The notes beneath the pieces are model-generated. The model saw only the letters and a program-made list of their open reading frames with translations, was not told the origin of the DNA and ran no database searches. From an uncultured Gemmataceae bacterium (lineage in GTDB: Bacteria; Planctomycetota; Planctomycetia; Gemmatales; Gemmataceae): a stretch of 64,000 nt of DNA. Shown here in pieces: positions 11,432-28,212 of the stretch. The stretch spans positions 2,284,270 to 2,348,269 of the forward strand of contig CAVVPN010000011.1 of assembly GCA_963750165.1 (NCBI GenBank), in the 5' to 3' direction. The translations under genes were made by a program, and so were the position numbers. Numbering within the stretch: the first letter of the stretch is position 1; each line of letters begins with the position of its first letter.

Positions 11432-12739
11432 TCACGCCCCAGTGGACGCCATCACTTGCTCCAGATCCTCCAGCAGCTTTTTGCCCAGTTGCGGATCCGT
11501 CATGTAAACATACGCCGCGTAGCCGCGCAACCGCGCCGGCGTCTCGCCCTCCTGGAGCCCCCCGCCGTGCTTCAGATTGTGAATCGCGGCCCGCAGCTGC
11601 CGCTTCAGTTTGCGCGGCACGCGCGGCTCGCCCTGACCGTTGACCACCAACCCCGTGATTTTCTGGCGACCGCCTTTGCGCAGCACCCGCGTCTTGTCCT
11701 CGTTGAGCGTGAAGCCCTCGCTCTCGACGATGCGCTTGACGAAGCCCAGCAATTTTCCCAGGAACGGCTTGCCCTTGTGCTCGGCCGGCAAGCTGAACGT
11801 CAGGTCGTCGGCGTAGCGGCTGTAGCGCCAGCCGAGCTTCCTGGCCAGCGACGCAATGCGGTTGTCCAGATGCAGGCAGAGCGTGTTCGTCAGTCCGGGA
11901 CTGGTCGGCGCCCCCTGTGGCAGGCAGCGCGGCCCCAGGGCGATGTAGTACGTCTTGCCCTGGTGCTGTACGACCTCGCGCGGCGACTCCGTGCAGAGCA
12001 GCGCCAGCAGCGTCGCGATCTGTTCGCGGTAGCCGGCCTTGCGGAAGACGCCCTTGACGCGCGGCAGTGTTACCGTCGGGAAGAATGACTTGATGTCCAT
12101 CTTGACGACGATTTTGGCGTCCGTGTGCCGGGTGGCGTTGGTCAGCGTGGACCGGCCCGCGAGGAAACCATGCACCGCCCCATGCACGAGCAGTTTTTCC
12201 ACGATGTTGCGCAGGATCCAGCGCTGGGCCGCCTTCAGCTTCTTCATCGGCGCCCAGATCGGCCGTTCGCTGCCGTCGCGCTTGGGGATGGTGAAGCGGT
12301 AGTAATGGATGCGCGTCGCCGCCTCACGGTGGTACGCCAGCCAGCGCAGATGGCCGACCGACAGGCTCAGCGCCTCGGCCAGCTGCTGTGGCGTGTCCAG
12401 TGGCGGCAGTTCGTTCTCGGCGGCACGCTCCTCGGCGTGCGGCGCGTCCCATTTGTCCTTGCGGTTCGGCTCGTCGTTCCAGTAGATACCCTCGCCGAGG
12501 TGGACGATGTGGTTGGCCTTGTACGCGAGCCACGTTTCCTTCTTGATCTTGCGGAGTTCTTCCGCCTCGGCGCGCAGCTGCTTCTTGTACTGCTCCAGCT
12601 CGCGCTCGGACATGCCGTCCGTCTCGCGGCGCTCGACAAGGTAGCCGCGCTCGCGCAGTTGCAGGTTGATGAACGCCTGCACGCCGCCGGCCTGGAGGAT
12701 GTTGCGCCAGAGGGTGATCGGGTCGGTTTGCTTGGCCAT
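11432..12739 (-). CDS. Retron reverse transcriptase, Mx162-like
   Basis: IPKRDG, NAxxH (NATRH), DIKSFFP, LPQGAPTSP, catalytic RYADD and the retron-type ITGLVVN motif. The N-terminal extension (KANHIVHLGEGIYW) resembles the Myxococcus Mx162 RT as I recall it. Confidence 0.95.
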   Translation of the reverse strand: MAKQTDPITLWRNILQAGGVQAFINLQLRERGYLVERRETDGMSERELEQYKKQLRAEAEELRKIKKETWLAYKANHIVHLGEGIYWNDEPNRKDKWDAPHAEERAAENELPPLDTPQQLAEALSLSVGHLRWLAYHREAATRIHYYRFTIPKRDGSERPIWAPMKKLKAAQRWILRNIVEKLLVHGAVHGFLAGRSTLTNATRHTDAKIVVKMDIKSFFPTVTLPRVKGVFRKAGYREQIATLLALLCTESPREVVQHQGKTYYIALGPRCLPQGAPTSPGLTNTLCLHLDNRIASLARKLGWRYSRYADDLTFSLPAEHKGKPFLGKLLGFVKRIVESEGFTLNEDKTRVLRKGGRQKITGLVVNGQGEPRVPRKLKRQLRAAIHNLKHGGGLQEGETPARLRGYAAYVYMTDPQLGKKLLEDLEQVMASTGA

Positions 12740-12752
12740 GATTCGCTCTTCT

Positions 12753-12815
12753 CGTGGGGCAGACATTCCTCTCTGCCAATCATCAAGGACGGCAGAGAGG
12801 AATATCTGCCCCACG
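12753..12815. repeat. REP-like palindrome (GTGGGGCAGACATTCCT family)
   Basis: Near-identical element at 55806-55866. Confidence 0.85.
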
Positions 12816-12820
12816 ACCAG

Positions 12821-14692
12821 TTACTCGGTGGTCGCGTCCAGGTAGCCGCGGGCGTGCAGGTCGGCGAGCCGGGCCTGGTACGCCGCCCGCGCCTCCTCCA
12901 GCGTCCCGAACTTCAGCCGCTGCAGCCGCGACTCCTTGCCGGCCCGGCCCCAGCGCAGTTTCAGGCGCTGCTTCTCCAGCGACACCTGGAACACATCCTC
13001 GCCGGCCGCGTCGCGCTTGCTGAAGGTGCGCGTCTCCATCGTCACCTTGTCCAGGCTCGGCTTGCCGCGCTGCTGCTCCGCGTAGGCCAGCCGCAGCGCG
13101 ATCAGGTGAGCGCACGGCCCCTGCTTCAGCCCCTGCTTGCGGTACAGCGCACACGTGCATTCCGCCTTGAGCACCTGGGCTTCGTCGCCCAGCAGCAGTT
13201 GCGGCCGGTACTCGCGCTTGTCCTCGTCCACGGCGACCTTGCCGGTCAGCTCCAGGCCGGTGCCGGCGATGCGGTTCTCACTCGTGAGCTTGACCGCCCC
13301 GCGCCGCACCAGCAAATCATGGGCGACGCGCTCACGCTGGTTGCGGTACTCCAGCCGCTCCAGGTCCAGCGGCGCCTCGGACAGCGGACGTAAGCGATAC
13401 ACATCCTCCGCCACGTCGTACATGAGCTTGCCCTGCTGGCAGCCCAGTTGCAGTGCCTCGACCAGCGCCGCTCCCTTGAGGCCAGTCTTTTTGGACAGGG
13501 AATCAGCGTTGGCGAGCCAGACGCCGGCGAGGTGGGCGAGGATGGCTTCGAGCGGCTTGCTCGTCTGCGTCTTGCGCGGCAGCAGCAGGTCGAAGTTGAT
13601 CGCCTGCGACCAGTTGGCGGCGGTGAAGCCGGTCAGGCCGACCGTCATGGAAAAATCCGCGGCGCGAAAGATCCAGAAGTTCGGCAGACCGTTGCCGAGC
13701 AGCCGCACGTCGATGGACTCGATCAGCGGTAGCAGACGCTGGAGCAGCAGCAGTCGGCGCCGTCCCCAGATGCGCACCACCTTCGGGCTCTTGCCCTTGA
13801 ACGTGCCGAGGCTCGACGGCAGCACCAGCTCCCACGGCTCCAGCACCAGCCGCGGTTTTTCCGCGGGAATCAACTCGATACGGATACCGCGGCGCTTGCC
13901 CTTTTTGTCGCCGTGCATGCGCAGATGCCGCATCAGGTTGTACAGATCGATGGGCGCCAGCGAAAATTCGTCCTGCGGCAGCGTCGCAGCGGACTGCACC
14001 TGCAAGAAACCGCGCAGCCAGGTGTCCGGGACCTGAATCTTCTTCTCCAGGATTTCCTTGTGCGTCGCGTCCGGCGTTTTCATGGCGACCTGTTCGCGGC
14101 CGATGTGCAGCCGCGTCGCGCGGAAACTGCGCAGTTGCTGCACGCCCGCGAACAGCGCGGGGCTGAAGTCGATGTTGGTGGTGCCATGCGTCGGGCTGCC
14201 CGCCACGTCGAAGGTGCCGCCGCGGTCGAAGCTCAACTTGGCGTAGGTGCCCTCGTCCTTGCTAAAAACCTCGAAAATTACCTTGTCCGGGTGGACGGTG
14301 ATGATCGGGTCGAGCATGACGAACGCCAGCGGGTCGTTGCGCAGCAGCCAGGAAAAATATGCCTGCTGCGCCTGCCAGGCCCCCTGGCCGAGCGACTCCT
14401 TGCGCATACGCTGGTAGGCCATGTACGCGGTGCGGTCCTTGGGCACGTAGCGGAAATCGCTGCCGACGACGGCGTAAAGCGCGGCCATCGCTTCACGGAA
14501 GCGCAGCGGCTTGCGGACGGCACCGTCGAAGCGCACCGGCTCGCGCTGCAGGTTGGCGAACAGGTCCAACTCAGTGCCGGCCTCCGTCGTCTCCAGGTGG
14601 CTGGCGCCGGCGTAGCTCAGGTGGAACGGCGTGCTCGGCGCCGGCTCCGGCGCGGCCGCCGGTTGCTCGACGGGTGTTTCTTCGGTGCTCAT
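12821..14692 (-). CDS. SWIM zinc finger + C-terminal WGR-domain protein (retron-associated)
   Basis: AECTC...GPCAH SWIM motif and LRWGRAG WGR motif; start overlaps the upstream stop (ATGA). Confidence 0.85.
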   Translation of the reverse strand: MSTEETPVEQPAAAPEPAPSTPFHLSYAGASHLETTEAGTELDLFANLQREPVRFDGAVRKPLRFREAMAALYAVVGSDFRYVPKDRTAYMAYQRMRKESLGQGAWQAQQAYFSWLLRNDPLAFVMLDPIITVHPDKVIFEVFSKDEGTYAKLSFDRGGTFDVAGSPTHGTTNIDFSPALFAGVQQLRSFRATRLHIGREQVAMKTPDATHKEILEKKIQVPDTWLRGFLQVQSAATLPQDEFSLAPIDLYNLMRHLRMHGDKKGKRRGIRIELIPAEKPRLVLEPWELVLPSSLGTFKGKSPKVVRIWGRRRLLLLQRLLPLIESIDVRLLGNGLPNFWIFRAADFSMTVGLTGFTAANWSQAINFDLLLPRKTQTSKPLEAILAHLAGVWLANADSLSKKTGLKGAALVEALQLGCQQGKLMYDVAEDVYRLRPLSEAPLDLERLEYRNQRERVAHDLLVRRGAVKLTSENRIAGTGLELTGKVAVDEDKREYRPQLLLGDEAQVLKAECTCALYRKQGLKQGPCAHLIALRLAYAEQQRGKPSLDKVTMETRTFSKRDAAGEDVFQVSLEKQRLKLRWGRAGKESRLQRLKFGTLEEARAAYQARLADLHARGYLDATTE

Positions 14693-17600
14693 GTTGTCTT
14701 GACCTCTCCGGCCGCCGTGGCCAGGCGCTGCCGCGCCCGCTTCAGGCGCCGCAGCGCCCGCCACGCGGCCTTGCGCAGCTCTTCCTCTTCCTTGTCGTTG
14801 CGGGCGACGGCCAGCAATTTTTGCTCGGCCGCCGCCTGCGGGATTTTCGCCAGCCCCTCGACCGCCCCGAGTCGCGTCGCCTCGGGCAGCTTCGGGTTCT
14901 CCGCCACCGCGGCCAACCCATCCACGTCCGCTTGCGCGACCAGGTGCGGCAGGGCGACGCCCTGGTAGTGGACCTGGCGGACGGCGGCGCGGAGCGTGTC
15001 GGTCTCGGCGGCGCCGTCGCGGAGCAGCAGGCGGTTGAAGCTGACGCGATCCGACAGAAGTTTTTCCGCGATTTTTTTGGCCCGCTCCGGGCTGTTGCGG
15101 CCGAGCGCGTCCGCGGCGACGGTGCGGATTTCCGGGTCGTTGCCCAGCGCCGCCTGCTCCAGCACGTCGAGCGTCGCGGCGTCCTTCGAGTCCGCCAGGG
15201 CCGTGACCGCTTCCAGCCGGATCGGGCGGTACAGCGGGTCATCGGCCCCGGCGGCGGCCAGCGCGACGAGCCGGTCCTGCGCAACGCCGAGGCGGCCGGC
15301 GGCCCAGATCAGGCTCGTCAGGCACGGCGTCAACTGGTCGAGTTGCTGGCGGTCGCGCGGCAGGTTGTCCTTCGCGACCAGCCGCCGCCGTTCTTGCCAC
15401 GCCGCGGCCCAGCGGTCCAGCGCCGCGGCCACATCCTTGGCGGCGTCCTTCGCGGCGGAGCCGGCGCGGCCGAGCAGGTGGGCCGCCACCTGGACCGTTT
15501 TGGCGTTCTGGCTCGTCAGCGCCGCGCGGGCCTCCGCCAGCGGTGGCGGCGTGCGGTTGATGAGGGCGTTGGCGATGGCCGTGTGGACGAACTCGATGCC
15601 ACTGGCCAGCAAGCGGAATAACTCGGCCGGCTCCCCGCGCTCGCAGGCGCGCTTCAGCACCTCATCGTAATCGTTCCCCTCGTTCGGGTTTCGTAGCAGG
15701 GCATAATCCGGCTCCAGCGCGTCTGGTCCCCACAGCCGTCGAGCGCTGGTGAGCGCTGCCTCGACGGACATAGTGTCATCACTCTCCGACAACATCTTCA
15801 GCAGCAAGTCGCGGGTACTTGGTTCGTTGTTGTAGCCGAGTTGCTCGATGGCAAAATATACGGCATAGGTGGCCCAATCCTGGGTCTGTTCGCGGATCAG
15901 TTGCCAGGCGTCACGAGTGTTAAGCCAGCGCAATCCCTTGACTGCCGACCCCGCGAGAACGCTGTCGCTTTTGACCAAACGCGCCAGCAGCTTGAAGATC
16001 GCGTCCGCCTTGTCCGACCGGCCCAGGTGGCCGATGGCCTCCGCCGCCACGTCCTGCAGCGCGTGGCCCTCCTCGTTCGCCAGCCGCAGCAGCGTATCGA
16101 CCGAGCGCACGTCCGCCAGTTCGCCCAGCGCCCGCAGCGCCCGCGCCCGCATTGGATGATCGGTCAGGAAGTCGATGCTCGCCAGCAGCACGTTCATGCC
16201 GTCGTTGCGGCCCGCCTTCGCCAGGCCCTCCGCGGCCAAAAACTGCGTCACCGGGTCCTTATGCGCCAGCGCCTTGACCAGCGACTCGGCCGGCCCGCCG
16301 CGCTTCCGCAGCCGCCAGCCGACCGCCTCTACGAACGAGTGCCGAAACCGCTCGTCCGGGTGCGCCACCACCACCGCCAGGGCGGAATCGACCTCCTGGC
16401 CCAGCGCCCACCGCGCCGCCGGGATCAGCCGCGTGAGCAGGTCGCCAGCGCCGACTGTGAAGCAGCGGTCGATCAGTTGCGCCAGGAGGGCGTCGCGGCG
16501 CGGGTGCTGCTTTTCCAGCCATTCGCGGTCGGGCTTCTCGTCTTCGTAATCCTCAATGGGCTGATCGTGGCCGCTAACCAGCTGCAGCGCCTCGAACGCC
16601 TGCTTGCGCCACTTCGGCTGCTTCTCGAACAGTCCGAACAGCCGCGGCGCCACCTCCGGCCGGCGGAACCTGCCGACGGCCTGGAACAGCTCCGCGACCT
16701 GGGCGGTGCCGGCGGGGTCGTTCTCCAGGCGGTCGAGCAGGGCGTCCGGCGTGCGCGGGTCGCCGAGCGTCACCAGCGCCTTGATGGCCTGATTCTGGGT
16801 CGCGGCGTCCGGGGCGGTGTTCAGCAAGCTCACCAGGGCGGCATACGCGGCGCTGTCCTTCTTGCCGGCCAGCTCCAGCGCGGCGCGGTTGCGGACGGGG
16901 CGGTAGCGCGAGTCCAGCGCCTGCCGCAGCGCCGCCTGGGCCGCCGGGTCTTTCTCGTACTCCGCGGCCAGCCACAGCACCGCCTGCTTGCGCACCTCGT
17001 CGTTGGCGGCCTCCAACGCGCGGGCCGCCACCGGCGTCTGGCCCTGCCGCGCCACCAGCAACTTCGCCGCCTCCAGCGCCAGGTTGTCGCCGCGCGTCAG
17101 CATCACCTGTTCGATGACCTTGTCGCCCTGGCCGCCCTTCGCCGACGCGCCGAGCAACTCCAGCCCCTTGATGCCGAGGTCGGTGTGGCCCGCCTCCAGC
17201 GCCTCGGCGCCGAGCGCCGTGCCGTCCATTTTGAGCGTTTGCAGCTGCTCGAACGCCTGGAAGCGCACCGGCTGGTTGGGGTCGCCGAGCGCCTGCACGA
17301 ACACCGGCACCGCGGCGCGGGCGTAGTGGGCGTCGGCGCCGGCCAGCGCCAGGATGCGGGCGAGCGCGGTCTGGCGGACGCGGATGACGAGGGCGGCGCG
17401 CTCCTGCCGGCCGGCGGCGCTGCCCTGCTCGCGCACCAGGCCGACGTAGGCGCCGAACGCCAGCTCCTGCAGCTGCTCGGGAGTGTACTGCGACGCGGGC
17501 GGCCGCTGCGCCTGCTGCCGCAGCGTGGCGATCTCGTGGGCGAAGCGCTGCGTGTGCGCGGCCCAGGCGGCGTTCCAGGCGTGCGGCTCCTTCTCCTTCA

Positions 17601-20600
17601 GCGTCTGCAGCAAGGCGGCGGTGCGCGCCTTCAGGTGCGGGCCGGCGTGCGCGACCAGCGTGGCCACCGTGTCCACGATGTCCGCGCCGATCTTCCACGG
17701 CTGCTCCTCGCCGCGGTCGTTGAACAGCTGCGTCACGAACTGCAGGAACGCCGCGGGGTCGGTGAAGCACTCCAGGGCGCGGGCGGCGGTCAGGCGGACG
17801 CGCGGCATGCGCGACGACAGCGACGCCAGGCAGCGCGTCGGCGTGCCCGCGTTCGCCTTCAGCTCCAGCATCATGAGGAGCAGCAGCGCCTGGTTGCAGA
17901 GGTGGGAGTCGGCGTCGTCGAGGAAGACGGTCAATTGGTCCTCACCGGCCGGCCCCAGCGTCAGGGCCGCGATCAGCCGTTCCTCCGGCCGGAAGACCGT
18001 CGCCGCCTGATCGACGAACACCCACGACGCCACGTAGGGGTCGCCGGCGTAAGCGAGGCCGAGCGCCGCCAGGTATTTCACGTGATTGTCGTTGTGCTGC
18101 AGCGCCTGCCGCAGCGCCTCGGGGGCGTTGGCCGGCGATACCCAGATGAGCGCCCGCGCCGCCGCCTGGCGGACGTTGGCGTGCGTGCTGTCGAGCAACG
18201 GCAGCACGTCCGTCAACGCCGCGGGGTCGCCCAGCTCGGCCAGGCCGGCCAGCGCGTCCGCGACCAGCGCCGCCCATTCGCCCTGCCGCTCCTTCTCCTG
18301 CGGCTCCGGCCGTGTCGCCAGGCTCAGCAGCACCGGCAGCGCCGCCCGGTCGCCGTGCTTCGCCAGCGCCTTCGCGGCGCTGAGGCGCACGTCATCGTGC
18401 GGACTCTGCAGCGCGTCGGTCAGGGCGGCGCGGGCGTCGTCGCTGACCAGCGACTGAATCGCGCGCTGCCGCACGACTTTTTCCTTATCGACCAGGGCGC
18501 GGACGAGGATCGCCTGCGCCGCCTTCGTGTGCTTCTTGACCAGGCCCTCCACCGCCGCCTTGCGGACATCGACGTACTGCGCGAGCAGGCCGACTTCCAG
18601 CGGCTCCAGCTCCTTCGTCTTCTTGACCGCGAACTGGAACGCCTCGTCGCGCAGCTTCGGGTCGGGGTCGTTGTAGAACTCCAGCAGCAGCGACCACGCC
18701 CACTGCTCGCCAACCTGGGCCATCACCTCGGTCAGCACCTCGCGGCGGACGTTGGCGTGGGCGCTCTGCAGCACGAAGCGCAGCGTGGCCACGCCGCCGC
18801 CGGCGATCTGTAAATTCAGCGCCGCCTTGAACGCCTCGTTGCGGACGCTCTCGAAGCTGTCGTTGAGCGCCCGCACCAGCAGCTGCCAGGTCGGCGCCAC
18901 GGCGTCCTTCGGTTTCGCCTTCTTCGCCTCGCTGACGAGCACCTGCAACCCGCGGCGGCGCACGTCTTCAAAAGCGGCGCTCAGGCCGGACTCGGCGACG
19001 GTTAGCGGCTGCTCGTCGTGCAGCGCCAGCAGGGCGGTGAACGCCGCGTCGCGCACCGCCGCCTCCTTGTCGTAGAGCAGCGAGCGCAGCCGCTTGACGG
19101 CGCGCTCGTCGTCCAGCGCCGCCAGCGCCCGGCAGACTTCCACGCGCGCCGCGGTGTCGTCCTCGCGGCTCAGCTGCAGCAGCAGCCCGAACGCGCGCGG
19201 GTCGCCAAGGACCGCCAGGCCACGGCCGCCCATCAGGCACACGTCCAGCGCCCGGCTGGCGGTCGCCTGCAGCAGCGGGTTGTAATCCGCCTCATCGAGA
19301 TTGGGCTTCTCCGCCGCGGGTTTCTGCGGCTTGCCCGCGACGGCCTTCACCTGGGCCGCGACCTTCTGCAGCGCCGGCTCGGCCTTCTCCGTCTTCTTGC
19401 CCTTCTTCTCCTTGCCCTCCGGCTCCGCTTCCTGGCCGAACGTCTCCAACTCGACCAGTTGCCGGTGCAGTTCCGGGTCGCGTGCCCGCAGCGCCGGCGG
19501 CAGCCGGTCGCGCGTACACAGCGAGATCAGAAAGGCGGTGCGGCGCACGTCGGCGTCGGCGTCCTCGGCCCGGCGGCGCAGTGCCGCCTGCACCTTCGCG
19601 TCCTGCAGCAGTTTCCGCTGAAACAGGCGGATCAGCGTGAATTTCCGCAGGTCCGCGTGCTTGCTGTTCAGCGCGATCAGGTTCGCTTCCGCCGCGCCGC
19701 CGTGGACGCGCTCCAGGCTCGCCAGCGCCGCCCGCCGCACTTCCAGCGTCTTCGCGTCCAGCGTCTCGACCAACCGGGTCAGCGCCTGGTCGTCCTTCGC
19801 CGCCAGCTGCTCCAGCGCCGCAACCGCCAACTTGCCGACATCCGGCTTGTCCGTCTTCAGAGCCAAATCGAGCGGCCGCAGGTCGCTGTCGCCGAGGTGC
19901 TTCCGCAGCCCCGTCAGCGCCGCGATGCGCACCGCCTCGTCCGCGTGGTTGAGCCGCTTCTCCAGCGCCTTCGCCGCGCGCGGGTTGGCGGCGTCGCCGA
20001 GCAGCTGCGTCGCCAGCAGCCGCAACCCGTGGTCGCCGTCCTTGCCGATTTGCTCCGACAGCAGTTCGATGCCGGCATTGTCGTTGAAGCCTGCCAGCGC
20101 CCGGATGGCGGCCTCGCGGCGGCGCGACTCGGTTTGCTCGAATTCGTTCTTGACCCAGGCGAAGGCGTCGTACACCTTCGCGGTCGGGTCGCCGATCTTG
20201 CCGGCCGCGTCGATGATGAAGCAGCGCAGCGTGTTGTCGTCGCAGACGACGGCCAGCTGCGTCCGCGTGTGGACCTGCACCAGCGTCAGGCCCGTCACCT
20301 TGACGACGCCGTCCTTCAGCGTCGCGGGTTTGGCGGCGCCGACGCGCGGCCACGCCTTCACGGTTTTGTCGCGGCTGCCGGTGTAGAAGCGCTCGCCGCC
20401 GGGCGCCCAGATCATGGCCGTGATCGGTTCGGTGTGGTTGTTGCCGCGGCCGCGGTCCTCCGGCTCCAGCTTGCCGCGCGCGTGCGTGGATAGCAGTTTC
20501 TGGTCGGCACCCACCGAGAAGAAGCGCAGCTCCTCCTGCTCGAACAGCAGCGCCGTCACGGCTCCTTCGTGGATTTTCTCGGATTCGCTGATGAGGAACT

Positions 20601-21093
20601 CGGGTTTGCCCTCGCCGTCGAAGACGGTCACGTGGCCCCGGGCGGTGCCCGCGACGAGCCACTGGCCGGTCGGGTCCGTCGCCAGCGCCGTGCCGGCGTC
20701 CGGCAGCGGCAGCGTCTGCACGGTCTTGCCGTCGCCGCGATTGACGATGACGACGGTGTTCTCGACCAGTGCCGCCAGCCGCTCCTGCGCCAGCAGCGCC
20801 AGCGCCACGGGCGCCGCGGCCAGCTGGGCGCCGATGGACTTCGGGGCGTTTTTGGCGGTGGCGTGGTAAATCCTGGCGTCGCTGCCGCCGACCCAGAGGT
20901 GCTCGCCGTCCGCGACGAGCGCGACGCCGCCGGCCGGCAGCAGGGCGGCGTCGAGGGTCTGCTTCTCGGCGTGCCAGCGGTACAGGGCGGTCGGCTGGCC
21001 CTCGGGGTGGACGGTGACGAAGGCCACCTGGTTGCCGACGCCGACGGCCGCCCGGATGTCGCCGCGGTACTGGGAATAGCGTTCCGTCGTCAT
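14689..21093 (-). CDS. 2134-aa WD40 beta-propeller + HEAT/ARM repeat protein (retron-associated)
   Basis: N-terminal WD-like repeats (FYTGSRDKTVKAW) followed by many VR..A..AL HEAT units. Confidence 0.88.
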   Translation of the reverse strand: MTTERYSQYRGDIRAAVGVGNQVAFVTVHPEGQPTALYRWHAEKQTLDAALLPAGGVALVADGEHLWVGGSDARIYHATAKNAPKSIGAQLAAAPVALALLAQERLAALVENTVVIVNRGDGKTVQTLPLPDAGTALATDPTGQWLVAGTARGHVTVFDGEGKPEFLISESEKIHEGAVTALLFEQEELRFFSVGADQKLLSTHARGKLEPEDRGRGNNHTEPITAMIWAPGGERFYTGSRDKTVKAWPRVGAAKPATLKDGVVKVTGLTLVQVHTRTQLAVVCDDNTLRCFIIDAAGKIGDPTAKVYDAFAWVKNEFEQTESRRREAAIRALAGFNDNAGIELLSEQIGKDGDHGLRLLATQLLGDAANPRAAKALEKRLNHADEAVRIAALTGLRKHLGDSDLRPLDLALKTDKPDVGKLAVAALEQLAAKDDQALTRLVETLDAKTLEVRRAALASLERVHGGAAEANLIALNSKHADLRKFTLIRLFQRKLLQDAKVQAALRRRAEDADADVRRTAFLISLCTRDRLPPALRARDPELHRQLVELETFGQEAEPEGKEKKGKKTEKAEPALQKVAAQVKAVAGKPQKPAAEKPNLDEADYNPLLQATASRALDVCLMGGRGLAVLGDPRAFGLLLQLSREDDTAARVEVCRALAALDDERAVKRLRSLLYDKEAAVRDAAFTALLALHDEQPLTVAESGLSAAFEDVRRRGLQVLVSEAKKAKPKDAVAPTWQLLVRALNDSFESVRNEAFKAALNLQIAGGGVATLRFVLQSAHANVRREVLTEVMAQVGEQWAWSLLLEFYNDPDPKLRDEAFQFAVKKTKELEPLEVGLLAQYVDVRKAAVEGLVKKHTKAAQAILVRALVDKEKVVRQRAIQSLVSDDARAALTDALQSPHDDVRLSAAKALAKHGDRAALPVLLSLATRPEPQEKERQGEWAALVADALAGLAELGDPAALTDVLPLLDSTHANVRQAAARALIWVSPANAPEALRQALQHNDNHVKYLAALGLAYAGDPYVASWVFVDQAATVFRPEERLIAALTLGPAGEDQLTVFLDDADSHLCNQALLLLMMLELKANAGTPTRCLASLSSRMPRVRLTAARALECFTDPAAFLQFVTQLFNDRGEEQPWKIGADIVDTVATLVAHAGPHLKARTAALLQTLKEKEPHAWNAAWAAHTQRFAHEIATLRQQAQRPPASQYTPEQLQELAFGAYVGLVREQGSAAGRQERAALVIRVRQTALARILALAGADAHYARAAVPVFVQALGDPNQPVRFQAFEQLQTLKMDGTALGAEALEAGHTDLGIKGLELLGASAKGGQGDKVIEQVMLTRGDNLALEAAKLLVARQGQTPVAARALEAANDEVRKQAVLWLAAEYEKDPAAQAALRQALDSRYRPVRNRAALELAGKKDSAAYAALVSLLNTAPDAATQNQAIKALVTLGDPRTPDALLDRLENDPAGTAQVAELFQAVGRFRRPEVAPRLFGLFEKQPKWRKQAFEALQLVSGHDQPIEDYEDEKPDREWLEKQHPRRDALLAQLIDRCFTVGAGDLLTRLIPAARWALGQEVDSALAVVVAHPDERFRHSFVEAVGWRLRKRGGPAESLVKALAHKDPVTQFLAAEGLAKAGRNDGMNVLLASIDFLTDHPMRARALRALGELADVRSVDTLLRLANEEGHALQDVAAEAIGHLGRSDKADAIFKLLARLVKSDSVLAGSAVKGLRWLNTRDAWQLIREQTQDWATYAVYFAIEQLGYNNEPSTRDLLLKMLSESDDTMSVEAALTSARRLWGPDALEPDYALLRNPNEGNDYDEVLKRACERGEPAELFRLLASGIEFVHTAIANALINRTPPPLAEARAALTSQNAKTVQVAAHLLGRAGSAAKDAAKDVAAALDRWAAAWQERRRLVAKDNLPRDRQQLDQLTPCLTSLIWAAGRLGVAQDRLVALAAAGADDPLYRPIRLEAVTALADSKDAATLDVLEQAALGNDPEIRTVAADALGRNSPERAKKIAEKLLSDRVSFNRLLLRDGAAETDTLRAAVRQVHYQGVALPHLVAQADVDGLAAVAENPKLPEATRLGAVEGLAKIPQAAAEQKLLAVARNDKEEEELRKAAWRALRRLKRARQRLATAAGEVKTT

Positions 21094-21116
21094 AGAGCAC
21101 CGATCGTATGATCATG

Positions 21117-21195
21117 TGAGACGGCTCTGGAGAGCCGTCCTACATGATGTCGCACTCGCCTCGTATTCCGTAGGACGGCTCTCCAGAGCCGTCTC
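21117..21195. repeat. GTAG-type REP pair flanking RAYT
   Basis: gagacggctctggagagccgtcctac and gtaggacggctctccagagccgtctc. Confidence 0.85.
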
Positions 21196-22030
21196 ACACC
21201 TGCTTTGGCTCCTCGAATCGCCAGCCGAGATCAACCCACTGCGGCCTGATCCACAACGGACAATTCTTTCTCAGTAAACCCGCCCTCTCTGGATTCGAGC
21301 CAATATACTGAAGCGCACGCCACAAGTGTTCTTCATCGCGGAGGATACGGTCGTAATTTTCCTCTTGCCACAGGTCACCCGAGGTTTGCAGCGTCCGGTT
21401 GATGCGACGCGCACTGTACTTCTTCCAACTACCCAGAATCGCTTCGAGTGGGTGCTCAGTGGGAACTAAGGGTCGCACGATGACATGGGCGTGGTTGGGC
21501 ATGACCACGTAAGAATCAAGCTCATACCGCTCGCCGTCGAAATGGTGCAATGCGGAGATCACCAAAGCAGCCAGGGCGGGTTGCTTCAGCACGCAACTGC
21601 CCATGCCCTGATCGAGCCATCGCTCAACCCGCTCGAAAACCGCACGCGCGCGGTTTTCCAATTCATCGGTTGACGGTGTGGCGCCGTGAGTGGCGTCACT
21701 TGTAGCACCGATCGTAGGACGGCTCTCCCGAGCCGTCTCGCCGCAGAGACGGCTCTCCCGAGCCGTCTCGCCGCAGAGACGGCTCTCCCGAGCCGTCCTA
21801 CGATTCGCGTCGTGTGCCGCAGTGTTGTGCAGAGTGGTGCGTCGCTCCCATTCCACTTTCAGCTGTTCCAACTCGTCCAGTTTGCTCTGAGGTAGAGCGT
21901 CAGCCAGACGGAAGGTAACGAGGTAAGTAGCGCCCTCCTGACGCCAATGGGGCAGATGTCGATGGTACACCGTGACCGATTTGTCCGGATGGAGTCTTTG
22001 AAATCCTGGTGGTGGCGGCAAATTCCACAT
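21194..22030 (-). mobile_element. REP-associated tyrosine transposase (RAYT, IS200/Y1 superfamily)
   Basis: HLPHW, YLVTFRLAD, YVVMPNHAH (HUH), WQEENYDRILRD; flanked by REPs. Confidence 0.9.
21714..21801. repeat. Tandem REP array inside the RAYT CDS (in frame)
   Basis: Three gacggctctcccgagccgtc palindromes at a 30-bp period, encoding TARESRLCGE repeats. Confidence 0.9.
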
Positions 22031-22080
22031 CCCTCACTCCTTGACGGTTTTCGCCATCATGAGATCATTCCCACTCCCCC

Positions 22081-22172
22081 GTAGGACGGCTCTGGAGAGC
22101 CGTCTCTTGAGAAGAAGACGGCTCTGGAGAGCCGTCTCTTGAGAAGAAGACGGCTCTGGAGAGCCGTCCTAC
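22081..22172. repeat. Tandem GTAG REP array (3 units)
   Basis: gtaggacggctctggagagccgtc(tcttgagaagaa)...cctac at a 33-bp period. Confidence 0.9.
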
Positions 22173-25100
22173 GTTTTTTTCCCGTCAACACTGGACGGAA
22201 GCGGATCTTGCTTGCGTATCCGCGTCACCGCCACCAGGCACGCCGCTCGCTCACTCTGGCCGCGCGACTCCATGAACTCCACCAGCAACGGCAGCACCAC
22301 CGCCGCGAAATCGCGCTCCTCCAGCGCCAGATCGCGGATCACCTCCACCAGCGACAGTTTCGCCTTGCGCCGGCAGCGGCTTGACGCGCTGCATCAAACT
22401 CTCGCCGTCTTCCTTCGGCGCCGGCGGCAACCGCGGCGGCGGAATCTCGAACAGCACCCGCCGCATGAACTCCTGCAACGCCTGGAAGCTCGCCGGCAAC
22501 CGCGTCGGCCGCTCCGGTGCCCCAGTGCCCCGCTCCGGCACCGTATCGACCTTCTTCGGCTTCTTGCTCGTGCCGATGTCGGACTTCGGCGGCACATACG
22601 GCTTCCAACCCTCGGTGATGCCGCGGTCGCGGTACAGCGACCAGATGGAGCGGATCACAAACGCCCGCACGCGCCGATCCGGGCTCTCCGTCAAGCGGAA
22701 CAACTCTTCCGGCACCTGCAACCGCGGGATGCGCCGGATAAGCTGCATACCCAGCGAGCGCGTCGATTCCTCCGGCGACTCGCAAAAACTGTAGACGGCG
22801 CTGGCGGTCAGCACCGCCGGATCGACGCGGTAACGGCGATGCTCCGGGGCGTCGTCCGCCAGCAGCGCGTTGGCGACGAACTGCCGCACGTCGCTGAACG
22901 GCACCTCGCACAACCGCACCAACTCCGGCACCGGCGGCGCCCAGCGCGCGAACTCCCACTTGGCCAGTTCCAGCGCGAACTCGCGCAGCGGCTTGCGGGT
23001 CTCGCTGAACAGCGGCTTCACCAGGTCGAACGTCAGGAACGCCGCCGGGATTTCCGCGCCCGGGTCCACCGGCCGGTCCGTCTCCGCCAGGGCGATGTCC
23101 GGGTGGTGCAGCTTCAGGTAGCGGCGGGCGAAGCGGCCCAGCGGCGCGTCGTCGGGGCCGGGCGCAGTCGCCAGTTGCCACAGCCGTTCGCAGCCGGCCA
23201 GCGTCGCGTCCGCCGAGAACGTCTGCTGCCGGCCCGCCAGCATCTGCAAAAACGCCGTCTCGGAGATGATCTTGATGTTGCCGCCGGATGCGTTGACCTC
23301 CTCCGCCTTGACCTGCTTGCTGCCCTTCTTGCCCTGGCCGTACAGCGGCGAACCCTCGTCACCAATGACGAGATAATGGAGCTTGTTTGTCACCGAACTG
23401 AAGATGACGCCATTGTTCTCGCGCACCTTCTTCTCGGCGTCCTTGCGGTCCATGGTCGCCATCTTGCCGGTGAAGACGAACGACGCGCCTTCCAGGTCAA
23501 CCTTGACGGCACCCGCTTCCGCCGCGGCCGGGGCGGCGGCCGGCTGCTGCGGGGCAAAGTCGGCGGGCACGAACACCTTGCTCAGCGTCTCGACGGCGAA
23601 GTCATGGTAGCGCGGTTCGCTGCGCACCACCAGTTTCATCAGCCAGTCCTGACCGAGGTCGGCGGTCGTGAAGCGGCGCACGTCGCTGAGCCAGGCCAGC
23701 ACCTTGTCGGCCAAATTCTCGTCAAACTTCAGATCCTTCGCCCAGGCCCGGTCGCTCGCCTTCAGCGCCGCCACCCACGGATCGGTCTCGAAATCGGGGT
23801 GAAACGCCACCGTCTTGAGGAACGGCGCCCCGAGCGTCTGGGCCTTGAGTCGGCCCTCGTCGATCCAGCGCATGACGTGCGCCCGGCCGCGCGGCATCAG
23901 CAGCAGGCGCTTCAAAAAGTCCGCGTCGAGCGTGTCCAGGTCGAAGCGGGCCAGCTCGCCGAGCGCGAAGTCGAGCACGCGATTCTCGGCGGCGTCGTTG
24001 GCCTGTTTGACGCGGTCGATGAGGCCGGTGAAGAAGGCAGCCCCGAGTTTTTCGCGCGGATGAATCTGCGGCAGCAACTTCTTCAGGAAGTCGAAGGCGG
24101 CGAAGTTCTGCGTGAACAGTCGATCCGCGAACCACTCCGGCGTCAGTTCCTTGACGCCGAAACTCTTCTTGATGACGCCCGCCGCCAGGTCGTGGCCGTG
24201 CTGCGATTCCAGCAGCGTGCCCCACACGTCGAGGCCAACTTCCTTGCGCGGGTCGCGGGACAGCAGCAGGTCCGCGGCCAGCTTGCGCACGTTGGCGCTG
24301 GTGCTGTTCGCCAACCGCACCAGCTCCGTCACGGGCAAATCCCGGGCGTGGGTGCGGGCGTAGTCGGCGGCGTACACCTGCGCCTCATTCGAGCCGGAGT
24401 CGAACAGCCGCAGCACCGCCTCGTGCAGCCCCAACGTGCGAAAACTGCCCTGCTCGAAGCGCGGCACGTTGTTCAGGATCCACACGACGAAACTGTCGAT
24501 GGTCGGGCTGCCGACGTTGACCAGGCGCGCGACCCACTCCGGCTCAACTTCACGTAGCAGAGCGCGGAAGTCCGTTTTCAAACTCTCGGTGGCGAACAGC
24601 CGCACCTGCTCGGATCGGGCCCGCTCCAGTAGCGAAAACAGCGGCCGCGGGCTGCGCTTCCACAGGTCCGCGAACGCCCGGTTTTTCAGCAGACTCGGCG
24701 GCTGCCGGTGATAGGTGAAGCGGCTGCGGTTGTACTTCTTCTCCTCGTGGTGAAAGATGTGGTTCGCCACCCAGGTGCGCAGCCAGTGCGTCTGATCGGT
24801 GTAATGGGCCAGCACATCGACGCAGGCGTCGGCGTAGGTCGCCGGCAGTGTCACGCCGGTGCGGCGCAGAAAACGCCAGGCCCGGCGGCACAGGTAGCCC
24901 AACGTGGCGATGCTGATCTGATACTGACCGCCGCCGTAGGCCATGTCGAAGCGCGCCGCCAGGGCGCCGTAGATTTCGGTGTCGCCGCGGCCCTCGGCCT
25001 CCTTGAAGATTTTCTTGAGGGCGCGCCAGGGGCCGTAGGTCAGCGGCACCGTGGCGATGATGCGCAGCAGGGCGGTGCGCGCGAACAGGCCGTTGTCCTG

Positions 25101-25403
25101 CCACAGCGCCAGCAGCACCTCGTGCAACCGCAACTTGTCGTCGAGCGGCACCTCGGCGTCGGGCGCTTCGAGGGCCTTCATGGTCTCGATGCGGTAGTGG
25201 GCCTGCTCGGCGTCGGGCCTGGCCTTGAAGGCGCGGGTTTGCAGCGTGGCGAGGAATTTGGCGAAGGTGAGGGCGCCTTTGCGCGGCGGCGTCTTCGGCG
25301 GCGGTGGCGGCTGCGCGGCGAGCAGATCGACCAGCTGGACCACCTGTGGGTCGTGGGCTTCCCAGGCACGGCGAACGTCGTCGAGTTGCAGTTGCGTGGC
25401 CAC
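22169..25403 (-). CDS. Helical-repeat protein with a LigA-type BRCT domain (retron-associated); probable frameshift near 22368
   Basis: BRCT LEGASFVFTGKMATMDRKDAE...SSVTNKLHYLVIG...GSKQVKA. The ORF as sequenced stops at 22251, but a protein-like tail (RKAKLSLVEVIRDLAL...) continues in another frame to 22169. Confidence 0.8.
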
Positions 25404-25435: not shown

Positions 25436-25509
25436 CCGGCGAGCGGGGGGCGTGAACCCCCTGTTGGATCGCACACCAATACAGGGGGCTCACGTCCCCC
25501 GCTCGCCGG
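25436..25509. repeat. REP-like palindrome (GGCGAGCGG family)
   Basis: ccggcgagcggggggcgtgaaccccctg...cagggggctcacgtccccgctcgccgg. Confidence 0.8.
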
Positions 25510-25570: not shown

Positions 25571-25846
25571 GCCGGCCCGTTTTTCTCGGAGGTGAGACTA
25601 CTTCTCCGCCTGGGTCACGGAAGGCTCACGGGCTCGCCGGAAGTATTCCTGCAGAGCATGCAGTGAAAACCGCGGCGGGCGTGGTTGTCCCAGACTCACT
25701 GCATGCTCTGCAGGAATACTTCCGAACAGCGAGCCTGAAACAGCCTTCCCTGAGACAAATCCCACACAAACCACTGGGGCGGCGCAACGCCGCCCTCGGT
25801 GCAAGGCACCAAGCTAGTCCTCCGCCTCCGAGAAAAACGAACCGGC
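25571..25846 (-). ncRNA. Retron msr-msd ncRNA, unit 1
   Basis: a1/a2 inverted repeats at 25571-25600 and 25815-25846; candidate branch G at 25814; msr stems; perfect 29-bp msd stem 25638-25666/25696-25724. Confidence 0.85.
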
Positions 25847-25934
25847 AATCCTTGAACGTGGATGTGTTGCGGTCGGGCCTCCGGCCCGAGAGGAGCAAGC
25901 ATGCAGCGAAAACACACCACCGGGCGATGTAATC

Positions 25935-26209
25935 CCTTGAGGTTGCTCCGGGGAGGGCACTTACTTCCCCGCCTGGGTCACGGAAGGCTCACGGACCCGC
26001 GGCCCATCACGGAGATCACCGTGATGCCGGAACCGCGGTTCGCGTGGTTGCTCCAGACCGGCGTCACGGTGATCTCCGTGATGGGCCAACGGCGGGTCTG
26101 AAACAGCCTTCCCTGAGATGGTTGACACAGAACACGCCCGGGTGACGCAACATCACCCACGGTGCAGAGCACCGGGCTAAGTTCCCCGGCCCCGAAGCAA
26201 CTCTCAAGG
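25935..26209 (-). ncRNA. Retron msr-msd ncRNA, unit 2
   Basis: Inverted repeats at 25935-25963 and 26178-26209; candidate branch G at 26177; 30-bp msd stem 26001-26030/26058-26087 with one G-T pair. Confidence 0.85.
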
Positions 26210-26217
26210 TTGGGTGT

Positions 26218-26246
26218 GTTGTAACCGACGCCGCGCGGCCGGGCAA
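26218..26246 (-). promoter_or_regulatory. Putative sigma70-type promoter for ncRNA unit 2
   Basis: TTGCCC-17nt-TACAAC on the minus strand, 8 nt before the a1 arm. Confidence 0.65.
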
Positions 26247-26260
26247 GGTGCGTAGCGGCG

Positions 26261-26300
26261 AAAAAAACGCGAGCCGCCAGGATTTTTCCAGGCGGCTCGC
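26261..26300 (-). terminator. Intrinsic terminator after ncRNA unit 3
   Basis: Minus strand GCGAGCCGCC-loop-GGCGGCTCGC followed by GTTTTTTT. Confidence 0.8.
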
Positions 26301-26303
26301 AGG

Positions 26304-26554
26304 GTTTCCGGAGCGGGACTACTTCGATTCCTGGGTCACGGAAGGCTCTCTGGCTCGCCGACGCGCGTGCCCTGGCGCGCGCGCCGGTACCACGGTTGGC
26401 GTGGTTGATCCAGATCGGCGCGCGCGCCAGGGCACGCGCGTCGAACAGCGAGCCTGAAACAGCCTTCCCTGAGACGATCGGTCCAGCACACGCTCGGGCG
26501 ACGCAACATCGCCCACGATGCAGAGCATCCAGCTAATCCGCCGCCTCCGAAAAC
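26304..26554 (-). ncRNA. Retron msr-msd ncRNA, unit 3
   Basis: Inverted repeats at 26304-26321 and 26534-26554; candidate branch G at 26533; perfect 28-bp msd stem 26359-26386/26416-26443. Confidence 0.85.
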
Positions 26555-26561
26555 TGGGCGT

Positions 26562-26590
26562 GTTGTAGTTGGCACTCCGCAAAACGGCAA
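26562..26590 (-). promoter_or_regulatory. Putative sigma70-type promoter for ncRNA unit 3
   Basis: TTGCCG-17nt-TACAAC on the minus strand, 7 nt before the a1 arm. Confidence 0.65.
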
Positions 26591-27083: not shown

Positions 27084-27140
27084 CGTGGTGCAGGCGTCCC
27101 GCCTGCAAAACCTTCATGCAGGCGGGACGCCTGCACCACG
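27084..27140. repeat. REP-like palindrome
   Basis: cgtggtgcaggcgtcccgcctgca...tgcaggcgggacgcctgcaccacg. Confidence 0.8.
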
Positions 27141-27825
27141 GAACAGCACCGCGACGCCGCGCAGCGAACCTTCGTCCAACTCATGTACCTCCGCGCTGGC
27201 GTACGCCGGGATCAACCGCCGCACCACCTCCACTCCTCCGCCGGTCAGGAACACGCGCCGCACCGTGCGCGGCCCCAGCGCCGCCAGCGCCCGCTCGTGC
27301 TGCTCCGCCAGCGCCCGCAGCACCGCCGCTAGCAGGTCCAACCGATCCGTCTCCAGCGTCAGCTCGCGGAAGGCCGCCCGGTGCGCCTCGATCTCCAGCC
27401 AGTCGCCACCCAGGTACGCCGGCTCCAGCGCCACCCGCGTGCTGCGCTTCTGGGCCTCGACAAGGGTCTGATGGAAGAACTCCGCTGCCGACTGCTCGCG
27501 GAAGCACAGCCGGTGCAGCCAGTCCAGGGCCACACCGCCTACCGGGTTGTGCGTCACCGCCACGTAACCGCCGCCGACGCCGTGCAGCCGCGTCAGCCGC
27601 CGTGGGTCGGGCCGCGGTGCGTCCGTCAGCACCGCCAGCACCTGCGTGGAGCCGACCACGTGCAGCAGGTCGTCGCGCGTCATGCCGGCCGCCAGCATGG
27701 CGCAGCTGGTGTCCGCGGTGCCGAGCTTCACCGGCAGCCCCGGCGGCACGCCCAGGTCCGCCGCCGCCGCCGAGCGCAGCAGCCCCACCGTCGCCGTGCC
27801 GTCCACCACCGGCGGCAAGGGCATC
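27114..27825 (-). pseudogene. C-terminal part of an FGGY carbohydrate kinase (N-terminus missing)
   Basis: GTADTSCA, GST, VFLTGGG motifs; coding signal lost at ~27825. Confidence 0.7.
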
Positions 27826-28212
27826 ATCGCCGTCTGCAAGAACGAAGGCCTCCGATTGTGGGAGGTCGCCACGGGCAAAGAACTCCACAATTTCTCGGGC
27901 TATCGGCTCCCGAGGAATGCGCGTGCGCCAACGCTGGTCGTGTCCGGCGACGGCAAGGTGATTGCCACCAACATCGCCTATGAGCCGGTCGTCGTTCTGT
28001 GGGACGCGGCCACGGGCAAGGAACTGCGTCGCCTGAAGGTGCCGGGCCAAGGGGACACCATCCTGGCGTTCACACCGGACGGCCAGCAGCTGGCGACGGC
28101 CCCGCACTACCAGGACAACCCGCGCCGTCGCAGCATCGTGTTGTGGGAGGTCGCGACGGGCAAGCAGCTTCGCCGTAACGGGGCCGGCAGGGGTGCGATC
28201 ACTTCTTCTTGA
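27815..28212 (+). pseudogene. Internal WD40 repeat fragment
   Basis: LRLWEVATGKE, VVLWDAATGKE and IVLWEVATGKQ repeats without a plausible start or complete end. Confidence 0.65.

Follow-up and report, generated by a model that had tools for sequence, protein, structure and literature searches.

A type XIII retron variant of the Gemmataceae with one reverse transcriptase and dispersed msr-msd genes whose long stems are kept or replaced whole

Retrons are usually viewed as consisting of one reverse transcriptase (RT), one non-coding RNA (ncRNA) and one trigger range. In a 64,000-nucleotide stretch of DNA from an uncultured Gemmataceae bacterium (the window) and in the genomes of its relatives, we observed a family of many ncRNA copies linked to a single RT, in which the long msd stem has a fixed length, is non-redundant within the genome, is enriched in dyad-symmetric sites and is replaced as a whole cassette. 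Each gene combines a constant scaffold with a 29-bp stem, which is kept nearly unchanged and then replaced whole. The best reading is that one RT works with a whole family of msr-msd genes sited apart from one another. The kind of system is itself known; what is new is a type XIII retron variant with one RT and dispersed ncRNA copies that carry different stems.

Three msr-msd Units on the Minus Strand

The repeat array at 25590-26580 is composed of three units of about 360 nt each (periods 363 and 357). Their minus strand carries, in every unit, covarying a1/a2 arms and msr hairpins, together with a TAGC branch site and the long msd hairpin. In the first copy, w1 (25578..25837, minus strand), the a2 arm lies at 25815-25837 and the a1 arm at 25578-25600. 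The predicted branch G is at 25814 and the msDNA would start at 25601 on the plus strand, the branch point and the msDNA ends being putative. The variable stem of w1 (25638..25724) is 29 bp long, with arms at 25638-25666 and 25696-25724 paired at 29 of 29 positions around a conserved loop (25667-25695). Copy w2 (25941..26200, minus strand, predicted branch G 26177) has a 30-bp stem at 26001..26087, with arms 26001-26030 and 26058-26087 paired at 29 of 30 positions and the loop at 26031-26057, and copy w3 (26299..26556, minus strand, predicted branch G 26533) has a 28-bp stem at 26359..26443, fully paired (28/28) between arms 26359-26386 and 26416-26443 around the loop 26387-26415. The best pairwise identities of the three arms are 8, 11 and 9 positions of 28-30, which is the chance level. 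The initial annotation had described three near-perfectly paired and mutually unrelated stems under a conserved apical loop, with a covarying basal helix, and our data agree with it on all these points. It was also right to regard the letters that it quoted as retron msd stems, with the clarification that they represent the predicted msDNA strand, the RNA being encoded on the minus strand.

The RNA was assigned to the minus strand on the basis of the a1/a2 arms, the TAGC branch site, the context of which agrees with PMC6868368, and the wobble bias of the msr helices. Wobble pairs, counted in the helices of 58 related sequences, served to assign the RNA and DNA parts to their strands. Read on the RNA strand, the msr helices contain 51 G.U pairs vs a single A.C. 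The mismatches of the apical helix favour the DNA strand (19 A.C, no G.U), and the unique long stems have 31 A.C vs 15 G.U (p 0.026). The basal msd helices show the opposite bias, towards RNA-strand wobble (66 G.U, 24 A.C). Folding z-scores of the three units are -9.0 to -9.8, with none of 200 shuffles equally stable, and the a1/a2 duplex reaches -21.6 to -32.9 kcal/mol in all seven copies of the window genome. Covariation was 0.60 vs 0.14 after shuffling, in an alignment fitted to the covariance model described below. Rfam gave no family at threshold and generic hairpin matches below it. The ncRNAs may resemble the RNA of retron Mx162 in sequence.

A promoter-like motif defined in this analysis (a TTG hexamer, 17 nt and TACAAC) precedes w2 at 26218..26246 and w3 at 26562..26590, both on the minus strand. 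It was found upstream of 4 of the 7 copies in the window genome and of 21 of the 159 copies in the multi-copy genus, whereas in control windows (about 158) it occurred 0, 0 and 1 times. A generic promoter scan detected no promoter at the ncRNA copies, w2 included.

A Type XIII Retron Operon

The minus strand reads, in order, the ncRNA units, a BRCT/ARM gene, a Y1 transposase-like gene, a HEAT gene, a SWIM/WGR gene and the RT gene. Two proteins of the operon match the PADLOC model HEAT-ARM_XIII: the BRCT and HEAT/ARM protein (22251..25403, minus strand, 1122 bits) and the WD40 and HEAT repeat protein of 2134 aa (14689..21093, minus strand). The SWIM zinc finger and WGR protein (12821..14692, minus strand, SWIM_XIII, 628 bits) has the invariant residues C512, C514 and C527, and no PDB sequence matched it. 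The retron RT (11432..12814, minus strand) had RT_XIII as the top of 56 PADLOC models, with 545 bits vs 322 for the next one. The gene order was kept in all four long relative loci that were checked. Every protein and RNA feature tested at the sequence level thus points to a type XIII retron except the single contiguous ncRNA, since the nearest copy is 12.8 kb from the RT, on the same strand, and the genome holds seven copies. The window genome encodes another type XIII RT as well (G000:C3:793793-799450), accompanied by a SWIM protein of its own; our covariance model R1 finds no ncRNA there, and this RT probably uses another RNA subtype.

The Y1 transposase-like gene (21194..22030, minus strand; PF01797 at 20.9 bits, short of the cut-off, 23), which we take to be RAYT-like, is inserted within the operon between REP-like repeats. 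These tandem repeats occupy 21050-22210 together with the gene, and further REP-like hairpins surround the ncRNA array (25436-25509 and 27084-27140). The BRCT/ARM gene shifts frame near 22360, close to its 3' end; its homologues align to about residue 1013, a conserved-looking tail lies in another frame, and the change is either real or an assembly indel. At 27114-28212, sugar-kinase-like and WD40-like frame fragments abut near 27810, which suggests a junction or rearrangement.

One RT and Many Dispersed ncRNA Genes

The seven ncRNA copies of the window genome comprise the three in the window, a tandem pair on contig C1, one copy on C3 and one on C9. A covariance model built from them matched 29 of 151 genomes of the family, with scoring limited to 15 candidates in each genome, and gave one weak match among 150 genomes sampled from the phylum, the window genome apart. 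By this model, the RNA is therefore essentially confined to the family of the window, the search having covered genomes of this phylum. In one related genus (g21), 23 of 29 genomes contained 2-35 ncRNA matches each, and exactly one RT, 66-69% identical, was found in the same 23 genomes. Among 41 mixed relatives, too, the 5 genomes with the ncRNA were the 5 with a close RT, and some relatives have a single ncRNA copy. Usually one copy shares the strand of the RT and sits 12-16 kb upstream of it. The co-occurrence of ncRNA and RT, together with the DNA-strand wobble bias, leads us to predict that msDNA is made.

Beyond these genomes, an RT scan of a genome contig collection gave three loci, the exact scaffold pattern had no match in the same collection, and RTs 63-75% identical occur in named Gemmataceae or Gemmatales records. 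The scaffold patterns had 0, 0 and 1 match in viral contigs, the one match being without a covariance-model match, and no close RT was found in the phage collection. Among the sequencing runs listed, none contained the RNA, and the 5-6% of the words found in three soil runs carry no information.

The proposal of the initial annotation that stem length, pairing and loop are constrained extends to these copies. Starting from 153 model matches, 14 antisense or duplicate rows, 5 matches without anchors and 21 with broken or atypical stems were removed. Among the remaining 113 intact copies, the stem measured 29-30 bp in 97 (63 at 29 bp, 34 at 30 bp) and was perfectly paired in 82. A second set, in which the G145 and G164 copies are counted once more, comprised 163 copies; a canonical arm was present in 135, and the arm-to-arm span was 85 nt in 119 of these 135. 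Arm positions 4-24 are near-random, with all four bases present, and nearly all stems of a genome are distinct: 28 of 29 in G318, 18/21 and 19/19 in others, and 7/7 in the window genome.

The other 28 of the 163 copies lack a canonical arm, and many copies are decayed or collapsed. In L298, L220 and L293 a short palindrome is all that is left, L216 and L266 are chimeras with two arms from different stems, and in L127-L130 (G108), L089:3497-3734 (G088) and L034 the stem and loop have been swapped for tandem or REP-like repeats. Two copies are fused head to head through the loop in L022:1358-1641 (G016) and L262 (G326), either as an inversion product or by misassembly. L069 and L071 (G093, G138) represent a subtype in which the hairpin is longer, spanning 106 nt, and the loop is of another kind.

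Stems at Matched Loci Are Kept or Replaced Whole

Loci were matched between species by their flanking DNA, and flanks at least 88% identical yielded 35 comparisons. These data come from relatives within genus g21, not from close strains of the window genome, and because the genomes are kin the counts are not independent. Stems differed at 0-2 of 29 positions in 17 comparisons and at 13-22 positions in 18, with none intermediate. Two independent species pairs gave 13 stems kept (0-2 differences) and 12 wholly replaced (13-22) out of 25, again with none in between, and when both flanks were required, 10 of 15 were kept and 5 replaced. We left out 31 flank-linked pairs without a scorable arm; inspection of unscorable pairs by eye showed some kept, one replaced and one half replaced. 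A comparison of stems across related loci had been suggested by the initial annotation as a way to distinguish diversification from drift, and its outcome is cassette-like.

Per-site divergence was 0.7% in the kept stems, 3.3% in the msr and about 7% in the flanks. Of the earlier suggestion that the stem sequence is free or diversified, the first alternative was not supported, since kept stems diverge less than the msr, are rich in dyads and reuse motifs (see below). Their slow change is also expected from pairing alone. Replaced loci mostly keep their msr, with 0-9 differences of 55 (mean 2.8, vs 10.8 between paralogues), and stem and loop change jointly. Identical stems were found at unrelated loci, within and between genomes, next to different msr sequences. 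In such shared stems the identical stretch starts at a conserved block some 28-30 nt ahead of the stem, and the exchanged tract is bounded on both sides by conserved msd blocks. Since the tract ends coincide with these blocks, msDNA and chromosomal donors are indistinguishable. One pair in G088 is near-identical through the msr as well, as from whole-gene duplication. Among the 12 replaced pairs, no more than two stem types had a resident twin, and none of the 5 strict pairs had one, so that new stems would come from outside, arise de novo, or have had their duplicates removed.

Stem Arms Contain Dyad-Symmetric Sites

The initial annotation made no mention of dyads, and their enrichment in the stem arms is a new observation. 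Defining a dyad as a half-site of at least 5 with a spacer of up to 6, we found one in 132 of 182 unique arms (from 218), vs 52 expected from dinucleotide shuffles, and in 57 of the 80 arms of the second set alone, vs 23 expected. Centre-perfect dyads were present in 124 arms, vs 65 expected. As a control, 130 other long inverted repeats of the window genome had 31 spaced dyads vs 11.5 expected, and 18 centre-perfect dyads vs 18.7 expected. Enrichment is weaker for 6-bp dyads (1.5-fold at half-site 3) than for those of 10-14 bp. The centres of the dyads tend to fall near positions 8-9, 14 and 18-19, and a stem comprises about two dyad-symmetric modules. Against a geometry-preserving shuffle, GGTNACC (19 vs 1.5), ACCGGT (15 vs 2.0) and GAATTC (12 vs 1.4) recur in different genomes, as do 10-mers present in three or more arms (18 vs 1.3). 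GGTNACC occurs at varied positions, motifs are found in either half of the arm and some dyad sites recur across genera; shared ancestry of modules could account for the recurrence. Dyads are costly, in that collapsed copies have lost stem and loop.

A simple catalogue of restriction or methylase sites is not supported, on two grounds, the stronger enrichment of the longer dyads and the finding that stem palindromes do not track the sites avoided in the window genome (Spearman 0.15, p 0.23). As a separate observation, this genome strongly avoids GTCGAC (observed/expected 0.01) and GTGCAC (0.09), which suggests a resident restriction system.

Possible Function of the Stem Repertoire

We favour, with about even confidence, the reading that the stems form a recombination-renewed library of double-stranded DNA baits for DNA-binding proteins. 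The single RT would make msDNAs of about 160 nt from all copies, and the operon proteins would hold them by scaffold, loop and length. By analogy with other retrons, the exposed duplex would be the bait, different in each msDNA on a common scaffold. Dimeric proteins that act on DNA, encoded by phages or other mobile elements, would bind, methylate or cut its dyad sites, and tampering with the bait would trip the effector; methylation, cleavage or binding of msDNA triggers other retrons (PMC12640716). Recombination with copies from other cells, some of them on prophages, would renew the library, and selection would keep it non-redundant. Counted against the bait reading are the spaced dyads in other long hairpins of the window genome (31/130 vs 11.5), the RNA wobble of the basal helix, the many decayed copies and the lack of a foreign stem match. 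A literature search found no antiphage data for type XIII retrons.

A structural stem with neutral turnover, for which any 29-bp duplex works, is possible, though we lean against it. Broken or slipped hairpins would be repaired by gene conversion, fold-back synthesis would give rise to dyads, and horizontal flow would bring variety. The collapsed copies, interpretable as loss between dyad-made direct repeats, and the half-replaced chimeras are as this explanation predicts, the stems have no foreign match, and engineered msd stems accept new sequence (PMC8632793). However, conversion from resident copies should homogenise the stems, which are distinct, and strict replacements had no resident twins (0/5). 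Elsewhere in the window genome, long hairpins show no excess of centre-perfect dyads, and motifs recur beyond the shuffle expectation, although shared ancestry could give the same result. We also consider, tentatively and as somewhat unlikely, an adaptive sensor repertoire, in which up to 35 msDNAs bait different dimeric invader proteins and new stems are installed by recombination templated on msDNA, with the help of the SWIM/WGR protein of the operon, prophages or neighbours being the donors.

It is improbable, in our estimation, that the msDNAs are domesticated decoys that titrate host dimeric transcription factors, with dyads as operator mimics and no role in defence. The 10-14 bp dyads do resemble operators, engineered retron DNA binds transcription factors (10.1101/2023.09.27.556556) and type XIII is largely vertically inherited (PMC7736814). 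Nevertheless, the genome of origin offers none of the stems a significant second site (mean best match 16.3 nt for own arms vs 16.4 nt for foreign ones), and a third to a half of the stems are replaced between species about 5% apart, which is fast for host regulation. We likewise assign a low probability to the dyads being selected not as sequence sites but as local hairpins or four-way-junction mimics, for RT passage or as resolvase bait. In keeping with this idea, arms taken alone fold more favourably than their shuffles, with a mean z of -0.85 as RNA and -1.0 as DNA, and the dyad centres are clustered, but symmetry through the centre is commoner than random tetraloops would give (an excess of 21 vs 5.6 expected), and a short linear duplex disfavours hairpin extrusion. 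The reading that old duplicates drifted apart gradually by compensatory change, with which the window copies alone (about 70% identical) would be compatible, is refuted for genus g21 and highly improbable altogether, because stems were kept or wholly replaced with 0 intermediates in 35 comparisons and the replaced pairs computed had P of 3e-5 or lower even under 3x flank divergence.

If the library of baits is real, the cell may display many different DNA baits, and one RT with tens of interchangeable, non-redundant msDNA cassettes would constitute a programmable sensor library. Should the bait model fail, the all-or-none turnover, fixed length and dyad content would still hold as genomic findings. 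The purpose of the long msDNA stem in myxobacterial-type retrons, a long-open question, becomes testable, and the roughly 180 natural stem variants, together with a scaffold that accepts 29-bp cargo, are a resource. Dispersed copies of this sort escape annotation restricted to the vicinity of the RT.

Relation to Known Systems

REPINs are inverted REP doublets, with the same short palindrome many times per genome, and we rejected this identity since the stems have no significant second site in their own genomes. The type XIII retrons Mx162, Mx65, Sa163 and Ne144 (Mestre 2020, PMC7736814) share with the present system, so far as the available text describes them, a clade-10-type RT, SWIM and HEAT/ARM partners, and an msr-msd RNA with a1/a2 arms and a branch G. 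The 162 nt of the Mx162 msDNA (PMC6868368) fit the length of about 160 nt predicted here. In contrast to the single ncRNA contiguous with the RT in the available part of PMC7736814, the nearest ncRNA here lies 12-16 kb upstream of the RT, before the operon, and a genome has 1-35 scattered copies whose stems differ. The words 'tandem' and 'copies' do not occur in the accessible portions of PMC7736814 and PMC13712802. Titles and abstracts in the literature, subscription journals and preprint supplements lying outside the coverage, revealed neither variable stems nor a dispersed repertoire.

The closest parallel for RT-less copies is a myxobacterial one, Retron-Nex1 (Ne160) of Nannocystis, with several msr-msd repeats without a nearby RT (Lampson and Rice 1997, as cited in PMC6868368). 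Those were described there as duplicated or retrotransposed repeats, whereas the copies here keep the msr and often an upstream promoter-like motif. Since msDNA alone could not supply these two elements, our case differs from the retrotransposed-repeat account. In Eco1, Sen2 and Eco7, the msDNA stem is likewise the element acted on by phage methylases, nucleases and binding proteins, but in the part of PMC12640716 available each system has one msDNA and no diversified set.

Source of the Stems

Like CRISPR arrays and diversity-generating retroelements, the family sets variable inserts of one length in a scaffold that stays constant, and like the latter it involves an RT. Unlike a CRISPR spacer, the insert here is a self-complementary duplex that has no foreign match and is replaced in place rather than added. 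A CRISPR-like spacer array was rejected, as none of the three window stems had an exact 21-mer match in viral contigs. A diversity-generating retroelement was rejected as well, there being no adenine-specific pattern and positions 4-24 holding all four bases and changing wholesale. The initial annotation had called for a search of the stems against phage, plasmid and host sequences. Nothing significant was found in phages (best E 0.3) or plasmids (best E 0.02), collections in which, as in the viral one, phages of the window's family may be poorly sampled, and the own genome held no significant second site (mean best match 16.3 nt, vs 16.4 nt for foreign arms). A spacer-like foreign origin is thus unsupported, and without a phage or plasmid match the stems do not qualify as CRISPR-type spacers.

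Four RT-less copies adjoin genes for the large subunit of a phage terminase: L170, L177 and L187 in G318 and L237 in G319. At the two of these loci that were checked, portal and head genes follow, in related head-gene clusters, and all four stems are different. Their position beside terminase genes points to a possible vehicle for stem transfer.
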